64,000 bases of DNA. Origin: a phage. A program made the translations under genes and the position numbers. The stretch lies in sequence record PZ386970.1. One strand, 5' to 3'. The stretch's first letter is position 1, and each line of letters opens with the position of its first letter. Shown piece after piece: positions 5,195 through 54,314 of this stretch. Below the pieces are notes generated by a model. It worked only from the letters and a program-made list of their open reading frames with translations, ran no database searches and was not told the DNA's origin.

Positions 5195-7408
5195 TTATTT
5201 GGCTGCTTCCACAGCCTTCATGAATTTAACGATTTGAGCGACCTGTTCTTTGGAAAGAGTACCACGTCGTCCCATGTATTCTGACACAATATGATAATTG
5301 GTTTCGAATTCAATAACCATTTTATCATCATTATCGTAAGCATTATCTTTAAGCTTATCGAAAATTTTAGCACACAATTCTAACTTCCTGTTCAGGTCTG
5401 TATTAGTAGCACCTGCGAATCGATTCCATCCCCAACGATTATTTACTGTTGAGAGTTTTGCAAAGTCTTTACTGATTTCTTTGTTCTTAGAGCTAAAATA
5501 CTTACTAAGGAAATTAAGCTCTTCATTACGAGTAATATGATTCAAATAAGGCTGTGCTCTACGACTTGGTGATACATACTCATCATAATCTACTTTATCG
5601 ATTAGCATAATATAGTCATTAATTGATTTTTCAAACAAACATTCTACTTCACCGAGTTTACGAACTTTCTTAGCAATCTGTGGGCGGACTACAGTGAACT
5701 CTTTAATACCTGACAAATCGGCAATACGGGTCAAGAAATTAGAGTCATAGTTCAACCAACCTTTATCTGCGTCAAGACATTCAGCATTAGAACGATTACG
5801 AACTATAGCATAACCTTGGATTTCATCAGCTTCACTCGCTGGAATAAAGAGATCTTCTGATACCCAAACATCGTTTTCATTCTTAAAGAACCGATGAGCA
5901 CTTGGGGATTTAGGACGAGGCTCATTAGTCCGTTTCCTGACTTCAATCCATGGCTTAACGATTTGTAAAAGCTCTGAAGTCTTGTACATGTTAATGTTGT
6001 CGCCATCAAAGATAACTTTAAGGCGTTCCAGAAGTTTCATTGCATCTTCGTCTGTAGGGTCAACGAATAGTACGCTTTTACCAAAACCACGTGGAACTTT
6101 ACCTGATAATTTAACCTCGTCTTTAGACATTTCAATTGAATTAAGAGCTCGCATTAATGGAACGCGTCCCTTAACGTCGTCAATAACAATTTCAACGTTT
6201 TTAATGTTAATGCCGATCAGGCTGTTAATTGAAATGGTTGATGATGAGCTACCACTTTCACGAATACGACGAAGACGAGGAGATTCAACGATATCGTATA
6301 CGACGCCAAGATTACACCACTCAGGCCCCATTTTAAAACGTTTGTACAACTCAGAATAAGTTAGTTGTTCTTTAGAGTATTTCAGTGATTCAATATTAGA
6401 CCCAGCCTTTTCCATGTATTTACGAGCGGTATAGCCAAGAGAATCAATTTCGCGGAACACATGACGTGGGTATTTACAATCAATCCATTTCTTAGAATCT
6501 TCAGCGAACAATTTAGCATCGATTTCTGCAACGCGTTTATGGATATTTGCTACTGTACGTTTATCAAATGACAATGCTTCACGAGACGGGGCTACATCTA
6601 GTTCACCCATAGGGAATTTAATATAAGCTGTAGTGCATCGCGTCATCATCCATGTTTGTTCTTTAATAACACTTCCGATTGGATATACAATGCCGCCATA
6701 AACAGCCATGATATTACCACGTTCACCCCATGGAGCTTCCTTGGCTAAATAAACATCATCGAATTCCGGGAAGTATTTGATATCTTTAACACCACGAACT
6801 TCTGCAATATCGCCGAGAGGACGCATAACATAAGCAATTTCGGATGCAAACTTTTCAAAATCTTCCGGGTTAACCGGTACAACTACTTCTACACCCGTAC
6901 GGTCATCAGGACCCATCTTATCTACAAAGGTCGGCTTAATCTGTGGACCACTGTCATCTTGATAAATTACATAACCACGAACTTCACCATTATGATAAGA
7001 CGTAAGGTTAAACGTATCAGTATATGCTAATGGAGCTTTAGAGCCGAGTCCGAATCCACCAATGAAATCGTTACTCGATGTTTTAGTTGAAGCAAAATAT
7101 GAGTTATAAATTCCTGGCTCTTCGTCATTACCACGAATAGTGAAATCACTCATACCCGGACCAAAGTCTCGAACTACAAAACGTGGGTCTAAACGACCTG
7201 GAGCCTGAACAATAAACTTATCAGTGCAACCATTAAGAATTTGCCCATCAATACAGTTTGTGATTAATTCACGTACACAAGCCAATTCTTTGTTTGTATA
7301 AAGGTCATTAGACAAAATCTTATAAACTTTGCTATTGCCTTGAATAGTGAATGCTGTGCTCTTACCGCCTGAACCAATAATCGTTTCTTTAGCCGTTTCG
7401 ATAATCAT
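5195..7408 (-). CDS. rIIA: rIIA protein
   Basis: 737 aa, size and position between 39 and rIIB as in T4. Confidence 0.8.
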   Translation of the reverse strand: MIIETAKETIIGSGGKSTAFTIQGNSKVYKILSNDLYTNKELACVRELITNCIDGQILNGCTDKFIVQAPGRLDPRFVVRDFGPGMSDFTIRGNDEEPGIYNSYFASTKTSSNDFIGGFGLGSKAPLAYTDTFNLTSYHNGEVRGYVIYQDDSGPQIKPTFVDKMGPDDRTGVEVVVPVNPEDFEKFASEIAYVMRPLGDIAEVRGVKDIKYFPEFDDVYLAKEAPWGERGNIMAVYGGIVYPIGSVIKEQTWMMTRCTTAYIKFPMGELDVAPSREALSFDKRTVANIHKRVAEIDAKLFAEDSKKWIDCKYPRHVFREIDSLGYTARKYMEKAGSNIESLKYSKEQLTYSELYKRFKMGPEWCNLGVVYDIVESPRLRRIRESGSSSSTISINSLIGINIKNVEIVIDDVKGRVPLMRALNSIEMSKDEVKLSGKVPRGFGKSVLFVDPTDEDAMKLLERLKVIFDGDNINMYKTSELLQIVKPWIEVRKRTNEPRPKSPSAHRFFKNENDVWVSEDLFIPASEADEIQGYAIVRNRSNAECLDADKGWLNYDSNFLTRIADLSGIKEFTVVRPQIAKKVRKLGEVECLFEKSINDYIMLIDKVDYDEYVSPSRRAQPYLNHITRNEELNFLSKYFSSKNKEISKDFAKLSTVNNRWGWNRFAGATNTDLNRKLELCAKIFDKLKDNAYDNDDKMVIEFETNYHIVSEYMGRRGTLSKEQVAQIVKFMKAVEAAK

Positions 7409-7420
7409 GTTTTTCTCTCA

Positions 7421-7621
7421 TCACAAGTTACGTTTAAAAATTTCTGCTACTTCAAGAAGTTCTTCTTTAGTAGCTGTGTCGGTTTGTATTTTATATCGAA
7501 TTTCCTTAAAGCGTTCTTTAAAGGCTTCAGCTGATTCGATATCAAAAAATCTTTGGATAAGCCGGAATTCCCGGAGCACTGCTTTATCAAAAAGTTCCAA
7601 GTCCACGTTATATGTTCTCAT
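7421..7621 (-). CDS. hypothetical protein (66 aa), rIIA.1 position
   Basis: ATG ORF MRTYNVDL... with RBS; synteny. Confidence 0.5.
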   Translation of the reverse strand: MRTYNVDLELFDKAVLREFRLIQRFFDIESAEAFKERFKEIRYKIQTDTATKEELLEVAEIFKRNL

Positions 7622-7645
7622 AATATTCTCTTCAGTAGATTCCTA

Positions 7646-7698
7646 GGGCACTATTACTAAAGACCATATAATCTATCATCTTATGTGTAATAGTGCCT
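7646..7698 (-). other. perfect 11-bp inverted repeat (GGCACTATTAC / GTAATAGTGCC) with 29-nt AT-rich loop
   Basis: seen directly in sequence, between the glycosyltransferase stop and the next start codon. Confidence 0.6.
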
Positions 7699-7713
7699 CA
7701 GGCGATTCAGGAT

Positions 7714-8814
7714 TTACGCTGTGAAGATTTTATCCCACATCGCAACAACTGCATCTCGATTATACTTCTTCCATACTGCTTCAGCACGTTTAACTCGAGC
7801 TTCGTATGTGTCAGTGAATTCTAATACAGCTTTTGTGTAAAGCGCAACTACTTCTTTCTTAGGAGTAGAAGAATCAATTTCTACACGCACAGTATCTGGG
7901 TCATATTCGAATGTCGCATGAGGATAATCCTTAAAAACTAACTGGATTACAGGGACACCTTTAGAGATGGCTTCAATAGAACTATTCTCTACCGTACCTG
8001 TGTCAGGACACGTATTAATAAGTGCTTTAGCTGTTTTAAGACGTTCCATAATTTCACTGTGTGGAGCATCAATAATAACAGGATATTTAGCTGGTGGTGC
8101 CCATTTACTAGGACAGTATCCTGCACCATTTTCGCCTAGTGCTTTAATCGCTTCAAGAGCAACATCAGTACGACGCATTTTAGTGTCATAACGTTGTGCA
8201 CTAATAATCAGATCAGTCGCCGGAAGAACTTCAGGTTTCTCATTCAAACAAATAACCGGATAATCTTCGGCTTCAAACAACGGATTTGCTCGCCAATAAT
8301 CATAATCAATTTTGTCAGTCAGTCCCGAAGTCATATAACAATATTTACGTTCAAATTCACGGAAGGCTTTAGTAGGAGCATAACTCTTACCACCATTCTT
8401 ATGAATTTGAATAGTCTGGTCCCAAATTTGAACAATGCCACGAGATACCGGCTCAAATGGTGTTGCCATAAAATTCTTATGAACTTTAGAGAGACCTGCG
8501 TCTTTAATTGCCTGAACGGTTAGTTTGGTCGGTTCCATTGTAACAACGAAATCGTACTCATTAATGCCGGCTAGTTCAACAATCTTACGAGCCATAGTAT
8601 AACTCATACCTAGACTGAATTTAGTCAGATGACCAACAGGATGATGATTAACCTTCCAATCACCAAATGTGTCATTATCAAAGCCGATATAATCAATATC
8701 AGCACCGATGGACACAAGATATTTCAACACATTTAAATGTACTGCTTCAAGACCACCTTGTACACGTTCTGGGTTAAATGGGACTGCGCGAGATGGGATA
8801 AACATAACTTTCAT
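7714..8814 (-). CDS. GT-B fold glycosyltransferase (GT4-like), candidate DNA sugar transferase
   Basis: 366 aa; N-terminus MKVMFIPSRAVPFNPERVQGGLEAV is the GT-B donor-scaffold signature; C-terminal E..SIEAISKGVPVI motif; lies between rIIA and 39. Confidence 0.7.
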   Translation of the reverse strand: MKVMFIPSRAVPFNPERVQGGLEAVHLNVLKYLVSIGADIDYIGFDNDTFGDWKVNHHPVGHLTKFSLGMSYTMARKIVELAGINEYDFVVTMEPTKLTVQAIKDAGLSKVHKNFMATPFEPVSRGIVQIWDQTIQIHKNGGKSYAPTKAFREFERKYCYMTSGLTDKIDYDYWRANPLFEAEDYPVICLNEKPEVLPATDLIISAQRYDTKMRRTDVALEAIKALGENGAGYCPSKWAPPAKYPVIIDAPHSEIMERLKTAKALINTCPDTGTVENSSIEAISKGVPVIQLVFKDYPHATFEYDPDTVRVEIDSSTPKKEVVALYTKAVLEFTDTYEARVKRAEAVWKKYNRDAVVAMWDKIFTA

Positions 8815-8821
8815 AATTAAG

Positions 8822-8857
8822 CCTTATTAAAATTAAAATGAAGCTCCCGAAGGAGCT
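8822..8857 (-). terminator. UUCG-tetraloop hairpin (AGCUCC-UUCG-GGAGCU) plus U-rich tail, overlapping the HNH gene stop
   Basis: stem-loop followed by UCAUUUUAAUUUU on minus strand. Confidence 0.45.
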
Positions 8858-9654
8858 TAGGACATCCAACACATTTTATAACCTTTGCAGGTTCTGTTAG
8901 GATTATTTAATGCTTTCAATATATTAGAAGACCCTATACCTAAATACTCCCTTAATTCATAAAGATAGTTAAAATCAATAGTTTCACCTGTTTTTACACT
9001 TGTGATTCTTATAGGCCTTCTTTCATATTTAGATTTATACAACTCTCTAGTCTTAGCTTTAGTTTCTTCTGACCTAGGAGTGTATGGTTTAAATCCTTTT
9101 GTTTTAAATGTTTCCATTCTTGATTTAGTTATTTTATCCTGGTGTTCTTTTGTTTTTACAGGTGCTTTTCGCCCATTCTCCCAAGATAACTTGTTGGCCT
9201 GTATTATTTTATCTATTGCTTCTTGCGTATGAGTTTTACCATAAAATGGATTTAATTCGCCTATACGTTGTGAAGCAATATGTGACATTAATTCTCTTGT
9301 TGCTTTAGTATGTTTTTTACCTTTAAATGGGTTGCCATTTTTAGCAATCCATTCTTTCATAAATCTAGAGTGCTCTTTAGAGAATTCTTGTTTAAGCCAA
9401 TCATAATCTCTAGAATTTCTAGCTCCCATGTAAAAAGCTCTAATAGCCATAAGCGTAGAACGGTTCTTATGAATTTTATAAAGCAATAAATGGGCGATAA
9501 AATGCTCTCTAGGGGTCATTTTAACTAGATTTGATTTAGCATTACTCCCGCCCATAGATTTAGGCAAAATATGGTGAGTTTCAGTATAATTAGGAATAGT
9601 GCTGCGGTTTTTAGCCGCAGCGATAAGTTTATCATAAATTTTACGATAATTCAT
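8857..9654 (-). CDS. HNH homing endonuclease with NUMOD-like repeats (free-standing, Mob-like)
   Basis: HHILPKSMGGSNAKSNLVKMTPREHFIAH HNH motif; repeated NPFYGKxHT motifs; ATG overlaps gene 39 stop (TAATG); track start is an upstream TTG. Confidence 0.75.
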   Translation of the reverse strand: MNYRKIYDKLIAAAKNRSTIPNYTETHHILPKSMGGSNAKSNLVKMTPREHFIAHLLLYKIHKNRSTLMAIRAFYMGARNSRDYDWLKQEFSKEHSRFMKEWIAKNGNPFKGKKHTKATRELMSHIASQRIGELNPFYGKTHTQEAIDKIIQANKLSWENGRKAPVKTKEHQDKITKSRMETFKTKGFKPYTPRSEETKAKTRELYKSKYERRPIRITSVKTGETIDFNYLYELREYLGIGSSNILKALNNPNRTCKGYKMCWMS

Positions 9655-11474
9655 TATCCTAGCATCCAATCTTTACGGAGTTCAGGGTCGTTACCCATGA
9701 GCATTTCAAATAGTTCTTTCCAATTTTCAGGAAGTTTAACTACGTCGTACACAGGGTTTTGAATCATTTCTTTATATTCATCCCGCTGAAGTGAGCCCAA
9801 TCCCTTGATGTATCGAATACTATGCTTAGGCAGTGTATCTTTAGCTTCTTCATACTCAGCTACAGTATAAAACCATTTTTGAGATTTGCCAATTTGTGCA
9901 ATAATTACAGGTGTTTTAACAAAGCGAATACGTCCTTGTTCAAACAATTCAGGCCAATTACTAAAGAAAGCAAGCAAAGCCGGATAGATACTTCCAAGAC
10001 CGTCATGATCGGCATCGGTCATAATTGCAATATTACGATAGTTCGTATTCTCTGCCTTTTCACCAAGAATAAGACCTGTGATAGCACAGATATCAAAGAG
10101 CTCTTTGTTCTTCATCATATCAGCATATGACATACCCCAGCTATTCATCACCTTACCACGTAACGGGAATCCACCATGTAGTTCACGGTCACGAACATCA
10201 ATGAGATAACCAATTGCCGAATCACCTTCTGTTAAGAACAATGTCGTATCTGCATCTTTACCACATTGGTTAGCTTTAATATGCTTATGAACCTTAGCTT
10301 TAGTTGCCTTTTTAGCTGCTTTAGTTTCTGCAGCCTTTTCTGCTGCCAATTTACGAGCTAATGCTGCTTCAACAATAGGCATAATCAAGGCTTCGTTTTT
10401 AAGAAGCGCCTGAGCAATTTTCTTAGCATCTAATTGGATATGATTACGAATATCACCATACGTTGACGTTAAACGTTCTTTAGTCTGAGAATCAAAACGC
10501 ATGTTGCTCATGTCTCTAATAAACATCAACATTGTGAGACATTCTTTAACACGAGCTTTAGTGACTTCAATACCCTTATATTTCTTTTTAATACCCGGCA
10601 AAAGATGTTCGCAGATATCATCCATTACACATTCAACATGATGACCGCCATTTTTAGTATGGATGTTATTAACATAAGTTAAATGACGGAAGCCATCTGG
10701 TGATGTTGTGAATGCTATAGAGACTTTATCATTTTCTTGAATGATGTTATCTTCACCAAATTGTTTAGCAAATCGTTTAAAATTACCATCAACCTTTTTA
10801 CCATTAAATGTGAACTTGATATCAGGATAAACGACTGCCAATGTTTGAAGTCGGTCTAAAGTAATATCTAAATAAATTTGAGATAAATTATGCTCTTCAA
10901 ATGAAGAGAAATCAGGAGTGAAGATTACTTTAGTGCCTTTACCTTTAGATTTCTTAGAAGACCATGATTTGTTTTCCATTCCATTTGAACAGTTAACAGT
11001 GATTTCATTTTCACCATCTGACGTGATGCCTGTAAACAACGTAGAGAAGATATTAGTTAAACTACTCCCGACGCCGTTCATACCACCAGTCTTGCGTTCA
11101 GAATCATCACCAAAGTTACCACCAGCTTTTGGAATAGTCCAGGCTGCTACAGGCCCAGGAATTTGTTCACCTGTTTGGTCGGTAACTAAACCTTGAGGAA
11201 TACCACGTCCGTTATCTTCAACCGAAACTTGATTATTTTTAATTTGCACATCAATTTTATTTGCAAACTTAAATGATGTACGAATAGCTTCATCAACTGA
11301 GTTGTCAATAATCTCATCGATTAATTTAACCAGGCCAGGAACATATTCAACTTGTTGATATTTACCAAACAAAAAACGCTCATGTGCTTCTTTGGCCGAA
11401 GAACCAATATACATACCACTACGTTTCTTAATATGTTCTACATCTGACAATACCTTAATTTCATTTTTAATCAT
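9654..11474 (-). CDS. 39: DNA topoisomerase II large subunit (GyrB-like ATPase + Toprim), unsplit gp39
   Basis: 606 aa; MIKNEIKVLSDVEHIKKRSGMYIGSS N-terminus; Toprim LFLTEGDSA...DADHDG at C-terminus in the same ORF. Confidence 0.9.
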   Translation of the reverse strand: MIKNEIKVLSDVEHIKKRSGMYIGSSAKEAHERFLFGKYQQVEYVPGLVKLIDEIIDNSVDEAIRTSFKFANKIDVQIKNNQVSVEDNGRGIPQGLVTDQTGEQIPGPVAAWTIPKAGGNFGDDSERKTGGMNGVGSSLTNIFSTLFTGITSDGENEITVNCSNGMENKSWSSKKSKGKGTKVIFTPDFSSFEEHNLSQIYLDITLDRLQTLAVVYPDIKFTFNGKKVDGNFKRFAKQFGEDNIIQENDKVSIAFTTSPDGFRHLTYVNNIHTKNGGHHVECVMDDICEHLLPGIKKKYKGIEVTKARVKECLTMLMFIRDMSNMRFDSQTKERLTSTYGDIRNHIQLDAKKIAQALLKNEALIMPIVEAALARKLAAEKAAETKAAKKATKAKVHKHIKANQCGKDADTTLFLTEGDSAIGYLIDVRDRELHGGFPLRGKVMNSWGMSYADMMKNKELFDICAITGLILGEKAENTNYRNIAIMTDADHDGLGSIYPALLAFFSNWPELFEQGRIRFVKTPVIIAQIGKSQKWFYTVAEYEEAKDTLPKHSIRYIKGLGSLQRDEYKEMIQNPVYDVVKLPENWKELFEMLMGNDPELRKDWMLG

Positions 11475-12843: not shown

Positions 12844-13367
12844 CATTTTAGCAAAATAAAATCAACTTGTTCTGCCAATGAACGTCTAAACATTAATTGA
12901 CAACTTCCGAGTATGAAATCAGGTGCTTCATAGACCGCGATGTAGTATCCTTTAGCTTTCAAGAGTTCAACATCCACTTGGTCATCAAACCATGCATAAA
13001 CCGCGTCAACACTTTCAAATCCAAAATAGAACCCTTGAGCCCAATCTTCGCTCAATTCAAATGTGTGCTCAATTCTATAGTATCTTAAGATATTTTGTTC
13101 AAGGAGTTTGTCTTCATTTACTGTAGGACGATTAGGGACGTTATAGTTGTCGCCGTGATGGTAGAAGTTACCTGAGAGTATTCCATGCTTATCAAGGAAC
13201 TCCCATGTTTCTTCAGAGTTGTCGGTGCCCGACCAACCGTATGGTGAGCGAGGTTCTTTATTCCAAGAGGTTTCCCAAATTCTGACGGCTTTGCCGTCTT
13301 CGATAGCAATTCCTGGTAATGATTCACGTTGAGTACAAAAACTACGTTCTACGCGGTAAACTAACAT
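12843..13367 (-). CDS. hypothetical protein (174 aa from MLVYRVE)
   Basis: start placed downstream of promoter 13388-13425 after GAGGAG RBS. Confidence 0.5.
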   Translation of the reverse strand: MLVYRVERSFCTQRESLPGIAIEDGKAVRIWETSWNKEPRSPYGWSGTDNSEETWEFLDKHGILSGNFYHHGDNYNVPNRPTVNEDKLLEQNILRYYRIEHTFELSEDWAQGFYFGFESVDAVYAWFDDQVDVELLKAKGYYIAVYEAPDFILGSCQLMFRRSLAEQVDFILLK

Positions 13368-13387
13368 ATTATTCTCCTCTGGTTGAT

Positions 13388-13425
13388 ATGGCTCTATAAT
13401 ATCAAATCCAGAGGAGAAGTAAACA
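13388..13425 (-). promoter_or_regulatory. early-type promoter (family A)
   Basis: GTTTAC, spacer, TATTAT then AGAGCCATATCAAC. Confidence 0.45.
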
Positions 13426-13428
13426 ACT

Positions 13429-48931: not shown

Positions 48932-48994
48932 GATATTTTCCTCATTTTAAGACGATAGGAAGACATGTTATTATCTTCCTATCGTTGTACATTA

Positions 48995-50983: not shown

Positions 50984-51454
50984 TTAATCATGTTTCCACA
51001 CCCCATCGGTATTTGACCAAAGTCGCTGATTATCTGATCCTCGCCACAGCTTTTTGGTCGGAAGATTTTTCTCATACTTCCCATCAATAATAACATCAAC
51101 ATATTTAAGCATTTCTAGCTGTTTAATATCTTCAAACTTATATCCTGTCCACAACCAAATGCTTTTATTAGGATAAAGATTTTTTACTGTTTGAACAATG
51201 CAATGAATAACATCTCGGTTATCAGGATAGAGAGGGTCACCTCCGGTTATAGTCAATCCTTCTATATAATCATTATTCAAACATTCAATTAATTGTTCTA
51301 GTGTTTCACCAGTGAATGGAATACCATTTCTAGCATTCCATGTTGATTTATTATAACACCCTTCGCATTTATGCAAACACCCTGTAACGAAAAGAACGAC
51401 CCTACAACCAGGGCCATTCACAAAATCGCAAGGATAAAACCTATCATAATTCAT
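50984..51454 (-). CDS. nrdG: anaerobic ribonucleotide reductase activating protein NrdG (radical SAM)
   Basis: 156 aa; CLHKCEGC (CxxxCxxC) radical-SAM motif, GGDP. Confidence 0.85.
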   Translation of the reverse strand: MNYDRFYPCDFVNGPGCRVVLFVTGCLHKCEGCYNKSTWNARNGIPFTGETLEQLIECLNNDYIEGLTITGGDPLYPDNRDVIHCIVQTVKNLYPNKSIWLWTGYKFEDIKQLEMLKYVDVIIDGKYEKNLPTKKLWRGSDNQRLWSNTDGVWKHD

Positions 51455-52751
51455 TGGTGTTTAACCCTATGCATGATTTCTTTATTTTTACCGAGATTAA
51501 ATCCGCGTTCGTTCGGATTTCCCAAATAGCCGCATGTTCTTCTTATGGTGTTCATCTTTTTAGGATCAGTTTCTCCACAAACTGAACAAACAAATCCGTT
51601 TTCAGTAGGAGTCATTTCATGAGTACTTCCGCATGTAAAACATTTATCCACTGGCATATTAACACCAAAATAATCTAAATGTTGTGCAGCATAATCCCAG
51701 ACAGCCTCAAGACCCTTTAAATTGTTTTTCATATCTGGAAGTTCAACATAAGAAATGTGACCACCTGTCGCAATGAAATGATATGGCGCTTCACGAGAAA
51801 TCTTTTCAAATGGAGTAATATTTTCTTCTACTGAAACATGGAAACTGTTAGTGTACCAGCCTTTATCGGTAACATCTTTTACACTTCCATATTTTTCTGT
51901 GTCTAGTTTACAGAAACGATAACAAAGGTTTTCAGCAGGAGTAGAATACAAACTAAAAGCAAATCCAGTTCTTTCAGTCCACTGTTTAAGATGAGCATTC
52001 ATTTTAGTTAAAATTTCTTGCCCAATATCACGACCAACAAGAATATTCAATTCATGAATACCAATGTATCCTAAAGACACTGAACTTCTACCATTTTTAA
52101 ATAACTCAATTATGTCATCATCAGGTTTAAGACGAACCCCGAATGCACCTTCTTGGTAAAGAATAGGAGCAACAGTCGCTTTAACTCCTTTTAAGGAACT
52201 AATTCTACACATCAAAGCTTCAAAACATAAATCCATTCGTTCATTGAATAATTCAACAAATTTCTGTTCATTGAACTGTGTTCCAATATAAGAATCTAAT
52301 GCGATACGAGGAAGATTCAGTGTTACAACACCGAGATTATTACGTCCATCAAGAATTTCATTACCAGTCGAATCTTTCCATACACTCAAGAAACTACGGC
52401 AGCCCATTGGAGAAACAGGAACAGATGAACCGGTAATAGCTTTATTATTCTTAACAGAAATAATGTCAGGATACATTCTTTTGCTTGCACATTCTAACGC
52501 AAGTTGTTTAATATCATAGTTCGGATCATCTTTATAAAGATTAACACCCTCTTCAACAAACATAACAAGTTTAGGAAAAATAGGAGTTATCCCATCACGA
52601 CCAAGACCTTTAATACGATTTTTCAGAATTGCTTTCTGAATCATTCGTTCAGTCCAGTCAGTTCCCGTACCAAATGTAATTGTTACAAAAGGCGTTTGTC
52701 CATTAGAGCTGAAAAGTGTATTTACTTCATCATTATATTCAGCATGAGTCG
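51451..52751 (-). CDS. nrdD: anaerobic ribonucleoside-triphosphate reductase NrdD, exon 2
   Basis: C-terminal CxxC...C and glycyl-radical region (RTCGYLG); 5' boundary predicted from intron terminal G and reading-frame continuity. Confidence 0.75.
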
Positions 52752-52756
52752 CAAAT

Positions 52757-53527
52757 TCATGCCCGTTTATATGAAACAACAAAATTTGGATAGTCCATAG
52801 ATATGCAACGTTCTTTTATAGTGCTAGGATGAAAATTTAGCGCTTTAGCTGCTTCTATATAAGACGTATACTTAATACCGTCAACAACCACATATTCAGG
52901 AACTTTATGAATAGTAGTCTTAATACTCAAAACAAGAGGATGAGTTTCGACTTCACTTTCAGTGCAATTTAAATATTCCGCTGCTTTTTTAAAACTTCTA
53001 AAAGTTTTATTTTTAAGCTTTATCGATACTTGTTTTTTACTTTTTCGACTATTGATATTATTTTGCACATGTTCCTTAGATCTTCCATTTTTAGCATAAT
53101 ATTCAGCTACAGAAGATTTTATATTGTTTTTATGAGATTTGGATAACACTTTACCCTTATGAGCATCTCTTAATTTTTGAATATGTTCTTCAGTATCCGG
53201 ATGTTTATAAAACTTTTTACCGCCTATGGATTTATTTAAACATTTTTTGCTATAAAAATATTTACGTATGACCTCTTCTTCATGTTTTAATGCATCTTTA
53301 TAACTATCAAATGTTTTTAAAATTATCCATTTAGTAGGTGTATCAGTTTTTAAGCGTTCATTTATATACTTAGATGACGTTGTGTAAGTTTTCCAGTTTG
53401 TGGGCTTGTTTTTAATTGTTCTAAATTTTTTATAACCGATATAAATGTCGCCATTAGAAAACTTAACTAAGTATGTAAATGCGTCTTTATCTTTTATTTT
53501 AGTACAACGTCTTTTTATCCATTTCAT
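52757..53527 (-). CDS. intron-encoded GIY-YIG homing endonuclease (I-TevII-like)
   Basis: 256 aa; FTYLVKFSNGDIYIGYKKF GIY-YIG core, NUMOD-like repeats, C-terminal HTH-like IKYTSYIEAAKALNFHPSTI; own RBS GAGGTG. Confidence 0.75.
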   Translation of the reverse strand: MKWIKRRCTKIKDKDAFTYLVKFSNGDIYIGYKKFRTIKNKPTNWKTYTTSSKYINERLKTDTPTKWIILKTFDSYKDALKHEEEVIRKYFYSKKCLNKSIGGKKFYKHPDTEEHIQKLRDAHKGKVLSKSHKNNIKSSVAEYYAKNGRSKEHVQNNINSRKSKKQVSIKLKNKTFRSFKKAAEYLNCTESEVETHPLVLSIKTTIHKVPEYVVVDGIKYTSYIEAAKALNFHPSTIKERCISMDYPNFVVSYKRA

Positions 53528-53556
53528 TGTTTCACCTCGTATTCATAAGATAATCT

Positions 53557-53564
53557 TATTTATA
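53557..53564 (-). promoter_or_regulatory. late promoter TATAAATA inside the intron, upstream of the homing endonuclease ORF
   Basis: exact TATAAATA about 30 nt before the ATG; T4 intron endonucleases are late-expressed. Confidence 0.5.
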
Positions 53565-53776
53565 CAAGATGACTGCTGCATGTCGCCATGCAGATTAGAC
53601 TATATCTTCATCTTTCGATGCCGGCCGTTTCGAATAGCATTAGCTTCTATTCTACACCGTTACATTCATCACGGTTAGTCGTTAGGCATTTAGTTCAAAA
53701 GAACATTTAGCACGGGATTGTCTTACTAGAGAGGTTCCCCGTTTAGACCGGTTTTACATGAGCCTGAATTAAATTA

Positions 53777-54314
53777 ACTCATACGCCTGAAATGCATCGT
53801 ATACATCTTTTTCTGTTTTAGATTGAGCATAATTCAACGCATCAGCGATTTGCCATTTTTCTGCATCCTCAATATGTTTTGCATAGGTGCGTTTAACATA
53901 AGGAGAAAGTACTTTATCTACATTTGCAAAAGTCGTTCCGCCGTATTGATGGGAAGCAACCTGTGCAGTAATTTGTGCCATAATTGCAGTAGCAACGCCA
54001 ATTGATTTAGGAGTTTCAATCTGTGCATTACCTAGCTTAAATCCATTTTCAAGCATTCCTTTTAAATCTACTAAACAGCAATTAGTAAAAGGAAGAGCAG
54101 GGGAATAATCAATATCGTGCACGTGAATAATTCCGCTTTCATGCGCTTTCATAATAAAAGACGGGACCATATTTTTGGCAATGTGTTTAGACACAATACC
54201 AGCCATAAGGTCCCGTTGAGTTGGAAAAACACGAGAATCTTTATTAGCATTCTCGTTCAAAAGATCTTTATTAGTTTTATGAATTAATCCTTCAATTTCT
54301 TTTTCAATTTTCAT
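53777..54314 (-). CDS. nrdD: anaerobic ribonucleoside-triphosphate reductase NrdD, exon 1
   Basis: 181-aa ORF ends in a stop just inside the intron; exon ends at U of GAGU predicted by P1 pairing. Confidence 0.75.

Follow-up and report, generated by a model that had tools for sequence, protein, structure and literature searches.

An inverted repeat between a glycosyltransferase gene and rIIA.1 in RB69-like phages, predicted to fold as an intercistronic mRNA hairpin

The inverted repeat that separates a putative DNA arabinosyltransferase gene from rIIA.1 in an RB69-like phage is real, non-random and genus-wide, and it is of an ordinary kind for T4-type phages. Within the 64,000-nucleotide stretch of DNA analysed here (record PZ386970.1; hereafter the window), the repeat belongs to a longer, irregular hairpin, predicted to span about 61 nt (7642-7702), and we see about an even chance that this hairpin serves as an intercistronic stem-loop of the sense-strand mRNA, a putative 3' stability, processing or attenuation element. 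The initial annotation, made from the letters alone, had left three roles open: a recombination or endonuclease target, an RNA processing site, or a regulator binding site. A role at the RNA level fits best of the three, in view of the stronger fold of the sense strand, three G-U pairs found in that strand only and substitutions that avoid paired positions; the proposal of an endonuclease target is not supported.

By sequence similarity the window is assigned to Mosigvirus, as an RB69-like T-even phage; 164 phage records match segment 7000-9000 at 90-99% identity, nearly all of them Escherichia/Shigella Mosigvirus. On the minus strand, gp39, the DNA topoisomerase large subunit (11474..9654), is followed by a 270-aa NUMOD3/HNH homing-endonuclease ORF (9669..8857; Pfam NUMOD3, PHROG 'homing endonuclease'); by a UUCG-tetraloop terminator-like hairpin with a T-run (8841-8858), which forms the upstream flank of the glycosyltransferase gene and is labelled as a terminator in the SA79RD and ATK47 annotations; by the 366-aa GT-B glycosyltransferase itself (7714-8814), a putative DNA arabinosyltransferase of the RB69 ORF003c/gp3 type; by rIIA.1 (7421-7621; PF24210, E = 3.7e-30); and by rIIA (5195-7408). 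The gene context first proposed for the repeat was right, in that the PF24210 match identifies rIIA.1, the NUMOD3 and PHROG matches identify the homing endonuclease, and the 366-aa ORF is RB69 gp3. The product of RB69 ORF003c/gp3 has been proposed as that phage's DNA arabinosyltransferase (PMC6024577), and gp3 is listed as putative beta-arabinosyltransferase 2 in a 2026 paper (PMC13326640).

The glycosyltransferase gene and rIIA.1 are co-directional on the minus strand and lie 92 nt apart. The hairpin starts 11 nt from the gp3 stop codon, and a spacer of 20 nt (7622-7641, minus strand) leads from it to the rIIA.1 AUG; this spacer carries a Shine-Dalgarno-like GAAGAG, is predicted to be unpaired, and holds no variable site across 25 Mosigvirus sequences. 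Further downstream, the rIIA.1 coding sequence itself contains GCTTTAAGGAAATTCGATATAAAAT (7488-7512, minus strand), a middle-promoter motif of the T4 type (GCTTTA-N11-TATAAA, a MotA box plus -10) that SA79RD annotates. Such a motif would drive rIIA without involvement of the hairpin, and because it sits within rIIA.1, rIIA is probably independent of read-through.

The repeat consists of two arms in perfect reverse complementarity over 11 bp, GGCACTATTAC (7647-7657) and GTAATAGTGCC (7687-7697), with a spacer of 29 nt between them (7658-7686; 24% G+C). This matches the original description of a perfect 11-bp repeat around an AT-rich 29-nt spacer, apart from the coordinates then given, 7646-7698, which are too wide by one non-complementary base per side. 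Outward extension yields 16-nt arms (7642-7657 and 7687-7702) that are 88% complementary. In the sense (minus-strand) RNA, the core stem joins the 5' arm GGCACUAUUAC (7687-7697), invariant in 25 Mosigvirus sequences, to the 3' arm GUAAUAGUGCC (7647-7657), which has two variants (RB69, ESCO47). The outer extension joins CCUGA (7698-7702) to CUAGG (7642-7646; variants in AV109, ESCO47, ST2 and OCHD01000040) by four pairs, one of them G-U, and an A.C mismatch.

A 69-nt sense RNA is predicted to fold at -28.5 kcal/mol (z = -5.8), with the MFE structure accounting for 74% of the ensemble and none of 200 shuffles being as stable, against -22.6 kcal/mol (z -4.4; 18% of the ensemble) for the antisense RNA, whose fold is weaker because the three G-U pairs of the sense strand turn into A.C mismatches. 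The nominal 29-nt loop would not be a true loop, since the helix is predicted to continue imperfectly through 7658-7686, with 5 bp (7678-7682 with 7660-7664), then 3 bp (7674-7676 with 7666-7668), and an apical loop GAUUA (7669-7673) that reads AAUUA in many relatives. Read along the sense RNA, the predicted order is 4 bp, an A.C mismatch, 11 bp, a 4x2 internal loop, 5 bp, a G.G mismatch, 3 bp and GAUUA, a single coaxial hairpin with 4 + 11 + 5 + 3 = 23 pairs. The fold is identical in 69-, 106-, 146- and 241-nt contexts. The end of the core 3' arm lies 25 nt from the rIIA.1 AUG, and both GAAGAG and the AUG are unpaired in the 106-, 146- and 241-nt folds. The modelling thus points to one dominant, self-contained hairpin just after the gp3 stop, which would leave the rIIA.1 ribosome-binding region single-stranded. 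We also considered a long-range clamp between the gp3 3' end (AUCUUCA) and the rIIA.1 SD region (UGAAGA), a possible basis for translational coupling, and rejected it; it is not predicted in the 146- or 241-nt folds.

Structures of this kind are more frequent in the window than its composition predicts. Three perfect inverted repeats with arms of 11 bp or more and a loop no longer than 40 nt are present, against 0.64 +/- 0.73 expected in first-order Markov random sequences generated with the dinucleotide transitions of the window. All three (3/3) are intergenic, in gaps of minus-strand operons, and such hairpins are therefore non-random as a class; gaps between genes that reach 35 nt account for about 7% of the window. 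Among the 50 gaps of that size, the one with the hairpin has the most negative folding energy per nucleotide (-0.35 kcal/mol/nt). The initial annotation's contrast with the UUCG hairpins elsewhere also holds, as comparison with the hairpin at 8841-8858 illustrates. One of the other two long repeats (48952-48985, minus strand) has a 12-bp stem, ACGAUAGGAAGA, and a 10-nt loop, and lies between two small ORFs, 20 nt upstream of an SD GAGGAAA. It has neither promoter nor U-tract and is of the same general kind as the 7642-7702 hairpin.

Efficient intrinsic termination at the hairpin is unlikely because a U-tract 3' of the stem is absent on both strands, the minus strand continuing as CUAGGAAUCUACUG and the plus strand as UCAGGCGAUUCAGG. 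Position is what the hairpin shares with the intrinsic and UUCG terminators of T4-like phages: it follows directly after a stop codon, and the Acinetobacter glycosyltransferase has a UUCG hairpin at the equivalent place. Unlike them, it is AU-rich, with 5/11 G-C pairs in the core stem, has a nominal loop of 29 nt, outside the G+C-rich stem and 3-8 nt loop that define a terminator, and is followed by a T-run on neither strand. A terminator consensus scan did not report it. Comparison with Rfam 15 gave only chance-level miRNA/snoRNA matches for the hairpin region (14-16 bits, E at least 1.6) and no gathering-level match for the whole window. We likewise rejected a micro-ORF of 15 codons, MIDYMVFSNSALGIY, that starts in the loop, as 7 of 8 observed substitutions in it are non-synonymous. 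Elsewhere on the minus strand (51451-54314), nrdD, for anaerobic ribonucleotide reductase, is apparently split, its N-terminal part at 53769-54314 and its C-terminal part running from about 52782 to 51451, with a structured 241-nt stretch (53528-53768; -68.8 kcal/mol) and a 256-aa ORF (52757-53527) between the two. The layout resembles a group I intron with an endonuclease gene; Rfam gives no match there even at E <=0.1.

Genes e, soc, 49 and I-TevI of T4 are preceded by inhibitory hairpins with an internal promoter (PMC3014915), and the present hairpin resembles these in its two long arms, its loop of 25-30 nt and its place shortly upstream of a gene start. Were it a regulatory hairpin of that type, read-through transcripts would fold while transcripts initiated in the loop would lack the 5' arm, altering rIIA.1 translation. 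The loop does contain weak -10-like strings (TGATAGATT, GATTAT, TATGGT), and the window has an exact device of this sort at 13372-13418. Against this, we derived a position matrix from 22 early promoters in the window, on which genuine early promoters score 20-43 bits and the best site in 7621-7720, on either strand, -12 to -14.5 bits; this puts the region 30-55 bits below genuine promoters. A generic promoter consensus scan of the hairpin region found nothing, and the MotA box GCTT (GCTT-N11-13-TAnnnT) and the late box TATAAATA are absent from 7622-7713. On these grounds a promoter in the loop was rejected. Furthermore, neither SD nor AUG is sequestered: the 3' arm stops 25 nt short of the AUG, and none of the folds pairs the SD. 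The reading as a promoter-containing hairpin is largely refuted, and we hold it to be very improbable.

The device at 13372-13418 deserves description in its own right. It is the window's second perfect 11-bp inverted repeat (arms 13372-13382 and 13408-13418, 25-nt loop; 13367-13428 as a whole, minus strand) and resembles the T4 e/soc/49 arrangement: an early promoter, GTTTAC-N17-TATTAT, spans the 5' arm and the loop, and the 3' arm CCAGAGGAGAA covers the SD (GAGGAG) of the downstream gene, whose AUG is at 13367. Given this layout, read-through transcripts should hide the ribosome site and promoter-proximal ones should expose it. The early promoters of the window are otherwise uniform, with GTTTACA, 16-17 nt, TGnTAT(t/a)(a/g)T and then AGaCCTATCaaaac; examples on the minus strand are at 319, 2888, 3400, 18071, 19449, 24816, 59497, 60973, 61251 and 63946. 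In many of them a short inverted repeat (such as AGGTCTAT/ATAGACCT) lies across the -10 box, which makes them PeSL-like cassettes of promoter plus stem-loop.

The hairpin is confined to one genus and occurs once in each genome. The 131-nt region that contains it is found in 157 places in 155 Mosigvirus records, single copy per genome, with an identity of at least 95%, so the search among close relatives recommended in the initial annotation found the repeat in all of the roughly 155 Mosigvirus records and did not refute it. No Mosigvirus record has an indel at the site, and none of the relatives' records whose annotation was inspected annotates the hairpin. In the window, no second copy occurs beyond chance at one mismatch or fewer, and short-word BLAST finds no similarity elsewhere. 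An exact-arm search of IMG/VR returned Mosigvirus contigs exclusively. Since the window, the Mosigvirus genomes and IMG/VR yielded no further copy, we rejected the idea of a repeated or mobile element. Across 596 Gb of bacterial genomes there was a single arm match, where about 0.7 would be expected by chance, on the 'uncultured Prevotella sp.' MAG contig CALGRN010000206.1. There the same 11-mer arms are contained in a 17-bp inverted repeat, AAATACGGCACTATTAC / GTAATAGTGCCGTATTT, with a 28-nt loop (2441-2502 of the extracted locus); its loop and flanks are different and it shows no BLAST similarity to the window, and we take it to be unrelated, the match being consistent with chance.

These data also bear on whether the element acts in DNA, either as a promoter-less, PeSL-like recombination linker marking a cassette boundary or as the site of a dimeric protein on duplex or cruciform DNA. 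The repeat does lie at the exact edge of the acquired gene, whose other edge has a hairpin too; stem-loops across the -10 box are common in this phage's early promoters; and in T4-like phages PeSL stem-loops flank shuffled ORFs, with 'degraded' PeSLs near indels (PMC2839356, PMC4122927). On the other side, the hairpin has no promoter component, its single copy in the window and genome means that it has no partner for homologous exchange, and no Mosigvirus has an indel at the site. The structure is moreover strand-asymmetric, and its G-U pairs, like the G-C to G-U change seen in one relative, would be mismatches in DNA. As a regulator binding site it would be unusual as well: operator half-sites 40 bp apart, centre to centre, as these are, are atypical. 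We regard a DNA-level element as improbable.

A closer comparison with the promoter-early stem-loops (PeSLs) and intercistronic stem-loops of T4-type mRNAs (Arbiol et al. 2010, PMC2839356; Comeau et al. 2014, PMC4122927) shows both likeness and difference. Like them, the hairpin is intergenic, on the sense strand, in an early-gene cluster and beside a lineage-specific gene, and it has a stable stem without an obligatory U-tract, from which attenuation or insulation of transcription is expected. Unlike a PeSL, it has no early or middle promoter; its sequence is unique, whereas a PeSL motif recurs many times in a genome and flanks variable ORFs; and in place of a short G/C stem it has a far longer one (11-16 bp) with a large, internally paired 'loop'.

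The remaining DNA-level proposal, that the neighbouring HNH/NUMOD3 homing endonuclease recognises or cleaves the hairpin, is not supported by the distribution of the two elements. Proximity alone speaks for it, and even this amounts to 1.16 kb from the HNH gene. The same hairpin is present, identical, in genomes that have the HNH gene (the window, phiE142) and in genomes that do not (SA79RD, ATK47), the latter group also comprising the many records that match just 93% of the 7000-9000 query. The HNH insertion is found in at least the best 19 of 40 listed relatives and is missing from many others, SA79RD and ATK47 among them. Homing sites normally lie near the insertion of the endonuclease gene, which in this case is at the extreme end of gene 39 (window 8857-9700), the likely ATG of the endonuclease overlapping the gene 39 stop (TAATG). 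It is there that, in the HNH-plus allele, recoding has altered about 12 of the final 45 nt of gene 39 in comparison with relatives that lack the endonuclease, changing EWMS* to DWMLG*, and that the endonuclease ORF terminates in the original gene 39 end, ...TGGATGTCCTAA. This allele-specific recoding, beside the insertion point, suggests that the homing-site signature is the 3' end of gene 39 and not the hairpin, and we find the hairpin hardly credible as a target of the enzyme.

Variation within the genus was read in 25 sequences out of about 155 Mosigvirus records. Eleven sites vary in the 61-nt hairpin: 6 of them are among the 15 unpaired positions and 5 among the 46 paired ones (hypergeometric p = 0.019 over 25 sequences, with the structure taken from one of these sequences and the sites treated as independent). 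Within 7658-7686, 5 of 6 variable sites are at unpaired positions, and one and the same C.A mismatch becomes a pair by C to U in ST2 and PhAPEC2 or by A to G in ESCO47. In the AV109 lineage, CU to UC in 7642-7646 makes the whole 16-bp stem perfect, at -35.3 kcal/mol. ESCO47 has a C to U change in the core arm (7647-7657) that turns a G-C into a G-U pair, with pairing kept, together with a C to A change in the 3' half of the outer stem (7642-7646). Other changes weaken the stem: in RB69 a core-arm U to C breaks an A-U pair (A.C), though the fold still reaches -24.6 kcal/mol; in MM02 one inner pair is broken; and in ST2 and OCHD01000040 a terminal G to C removes the last pair of the outer stem. 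In all, 11 of 16 stem pairs never vary. No two-sided covariation was found, against two one-sided pair-preserving changes and three pair-breaking sites (10 distinct sequences, from a genus in which divergence is only 2-5%). Nor is the hairpin more conserved overall than its surroundings, with 11/61 variable sites against 11/77 and 7/82 in neighbouring coding sequence. Taken together, the comparison is suggestive, not conclusive, of selection on pairing, and a comparative test at depth is impossible because the glycosyltransferase is known only from Mosigvirus and distant Acinetobacter phages.

Overall, the observed variation leaves room for the hairpin as a neutral relic of the recombination that inserted the glycosyltransferase gene, whether a junction or the donor's old 3' hairpin, kept because the genus is young and now without function. 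The limitation to one genus at identities of at least 95%, a density of variable sites not below that of the flanking coding sequence, the tolerance of pair-breaking changes in RB69 and MM02 and the absence of covariation would all be expected of such a relic. At the same time, substitutions are skewed towards positions without a partner (p = 0.019), pairing has improved through several independent changes, the structure is the most stable of the 50 intergenic ones, and the long perfect inverted repeats, intergenic in 3/3 cases, are a non-random class. We consider a relic possible, if rather unlikely. A separate effect of the AV109 change concerns gene calling: in AV109-type records rIIA.1 is annotated 10 codons longer (222-452 of the extracted AV109 locus), with a GTG start inside the 3' arm, because the same CT to TC change that perfects the hairpin also deletes an in-frame TAG. 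The extended rIIA.1 is probably an annotation artefact.

The initial annotation had placed the repeat exactly at the boundary between a putatively acquired transferase and the conserved rIIA operon, and this too is borne out, the hairpin being at the junction of a narrowly distributed glycosyltransferase gene and the conserved rIIA.1-rIIA unit. Only two populations have the glycosyltransferase: Mosigvirus, where identity is at least 95%, and the T4-like phages of Acinetobacter, at about 42%; the protein database and the metagenome scan gave no homologues intermediate between them. After the Acinetobacter genes comes either an ordinary UUCG hairpin or no spacer at all. The idea that the hairpin travels with the glycosyltransferase gene was rejected, as the Acinetobacter homologues have no such hairpin and there are no intermediates. 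In the other T4-like genera, located through their rIIA.1 homologues (64-76% identity), an ORF of about 100 aa abuts rIIA.1 without a spacer. This ORF starts with M(I/V)(M/L)..G(S/T)LVNL and ends with ...M(R/A)(K/R)IL.E(L/I/V)G (about 2170-2520 of the extracted loci); its stop overlaps the rIIA.1 start, and a tetraloop terminator hairpin and in some cases an early promoter precede it. A remnant of this small ORF, split by an inserted palindrome, was sought and rejected, local alignments giving p = 0.06-0.9 against shuffles. The hairpin probably came with, or formed at, the junction where the glycosyltransferase gene displaced the small ORF of other T4-like genera.

Returning to the favoured explanation, an intercistronic element of the sense-strand mRNA, the hairpin would lie in a polycistronic early/middle mRNA running from gene 39 through the HNH gene, where present, to gp3, rIIA.1 and rIIA. 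As intercistronic punctuation it might act as a barrier to 3'->5' exonucleases, as a site for a double-strand- or loop-specific endonuclease of the RNase III or RNase E type, or as both, and would thereby stabilise the upstream gp3 message. It might also partially attenuate read-through into rIIA.1-rIIA and would shield the rIIA.1 start site from the 3' sequence of the acquired gene. In T4-like phages, intergenic stem-loops without U-tracts lowered downstream reporter expression (PMC2839356). For RB69 or any Mosigvirus, our literature search found no published transcript maps, transcript-end data or RNase data.

Processing elements of comparable architecture are known from other phages, namely the RNase III hairpins between cistrons of T7 mRNA and the sib-type 3' hairpins of lambda. 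The predicted structure is like these in having an interrupted helix of about 23 bp with internal loops, between polycistronic phage genes, and after cleavage the upstream message would retain a 3' hairpin that protects it. Its roughly 23 interrupted base pairs, which by prediction reach the two helical turns called for in T7-type sites when interruptions are allowed, are compatible with an RNase III-type substrate. To our knowledge RNase III has no usable sequence consensus, and we know of no dependence of T4-type phages on this enzyme for mRNA maturation. The RNase E motif is RAUUW, and the apical loop GAUUA/AAUUA is compatible with it. A bolder version of this explanation would make the hairpin a dedicated switch of processing or stability, cut as a double strand by an RNase III-type enzyme or, in the conserved R-AUU-A apical loop, by RNase E, and setting the ratio of gp3 to rII proteins; alternatively, it might be a promoter-less linker by way of which the arabinosyltransferase gene was captured. 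We think this pair of proposals quite unlikely. If the linker version were true, the hairpin would represent a PeSL variant of a new kind, unique in sequence and connected with the hypermodification by which RB69-like phages are genetically isolated from other T-even phages.

T4-like genomes hold many intergenic hairpins, and the feature is otherwise routine. The main practical value of the analysis is negative, the hairpin being neither a promoter nor a terminator, and neither a repeated mobile motif nor the HNH target. If the hairpin is functional, it would offer a point at which gp3 expression could be tuned or deleted in RB69-type phages, and it would show by what means the conserved topoisomerase-rII transcription unit accommodated a DNA-modification gene gained by horizontal transfer, with translation of rIIA.1 left undisturbed.
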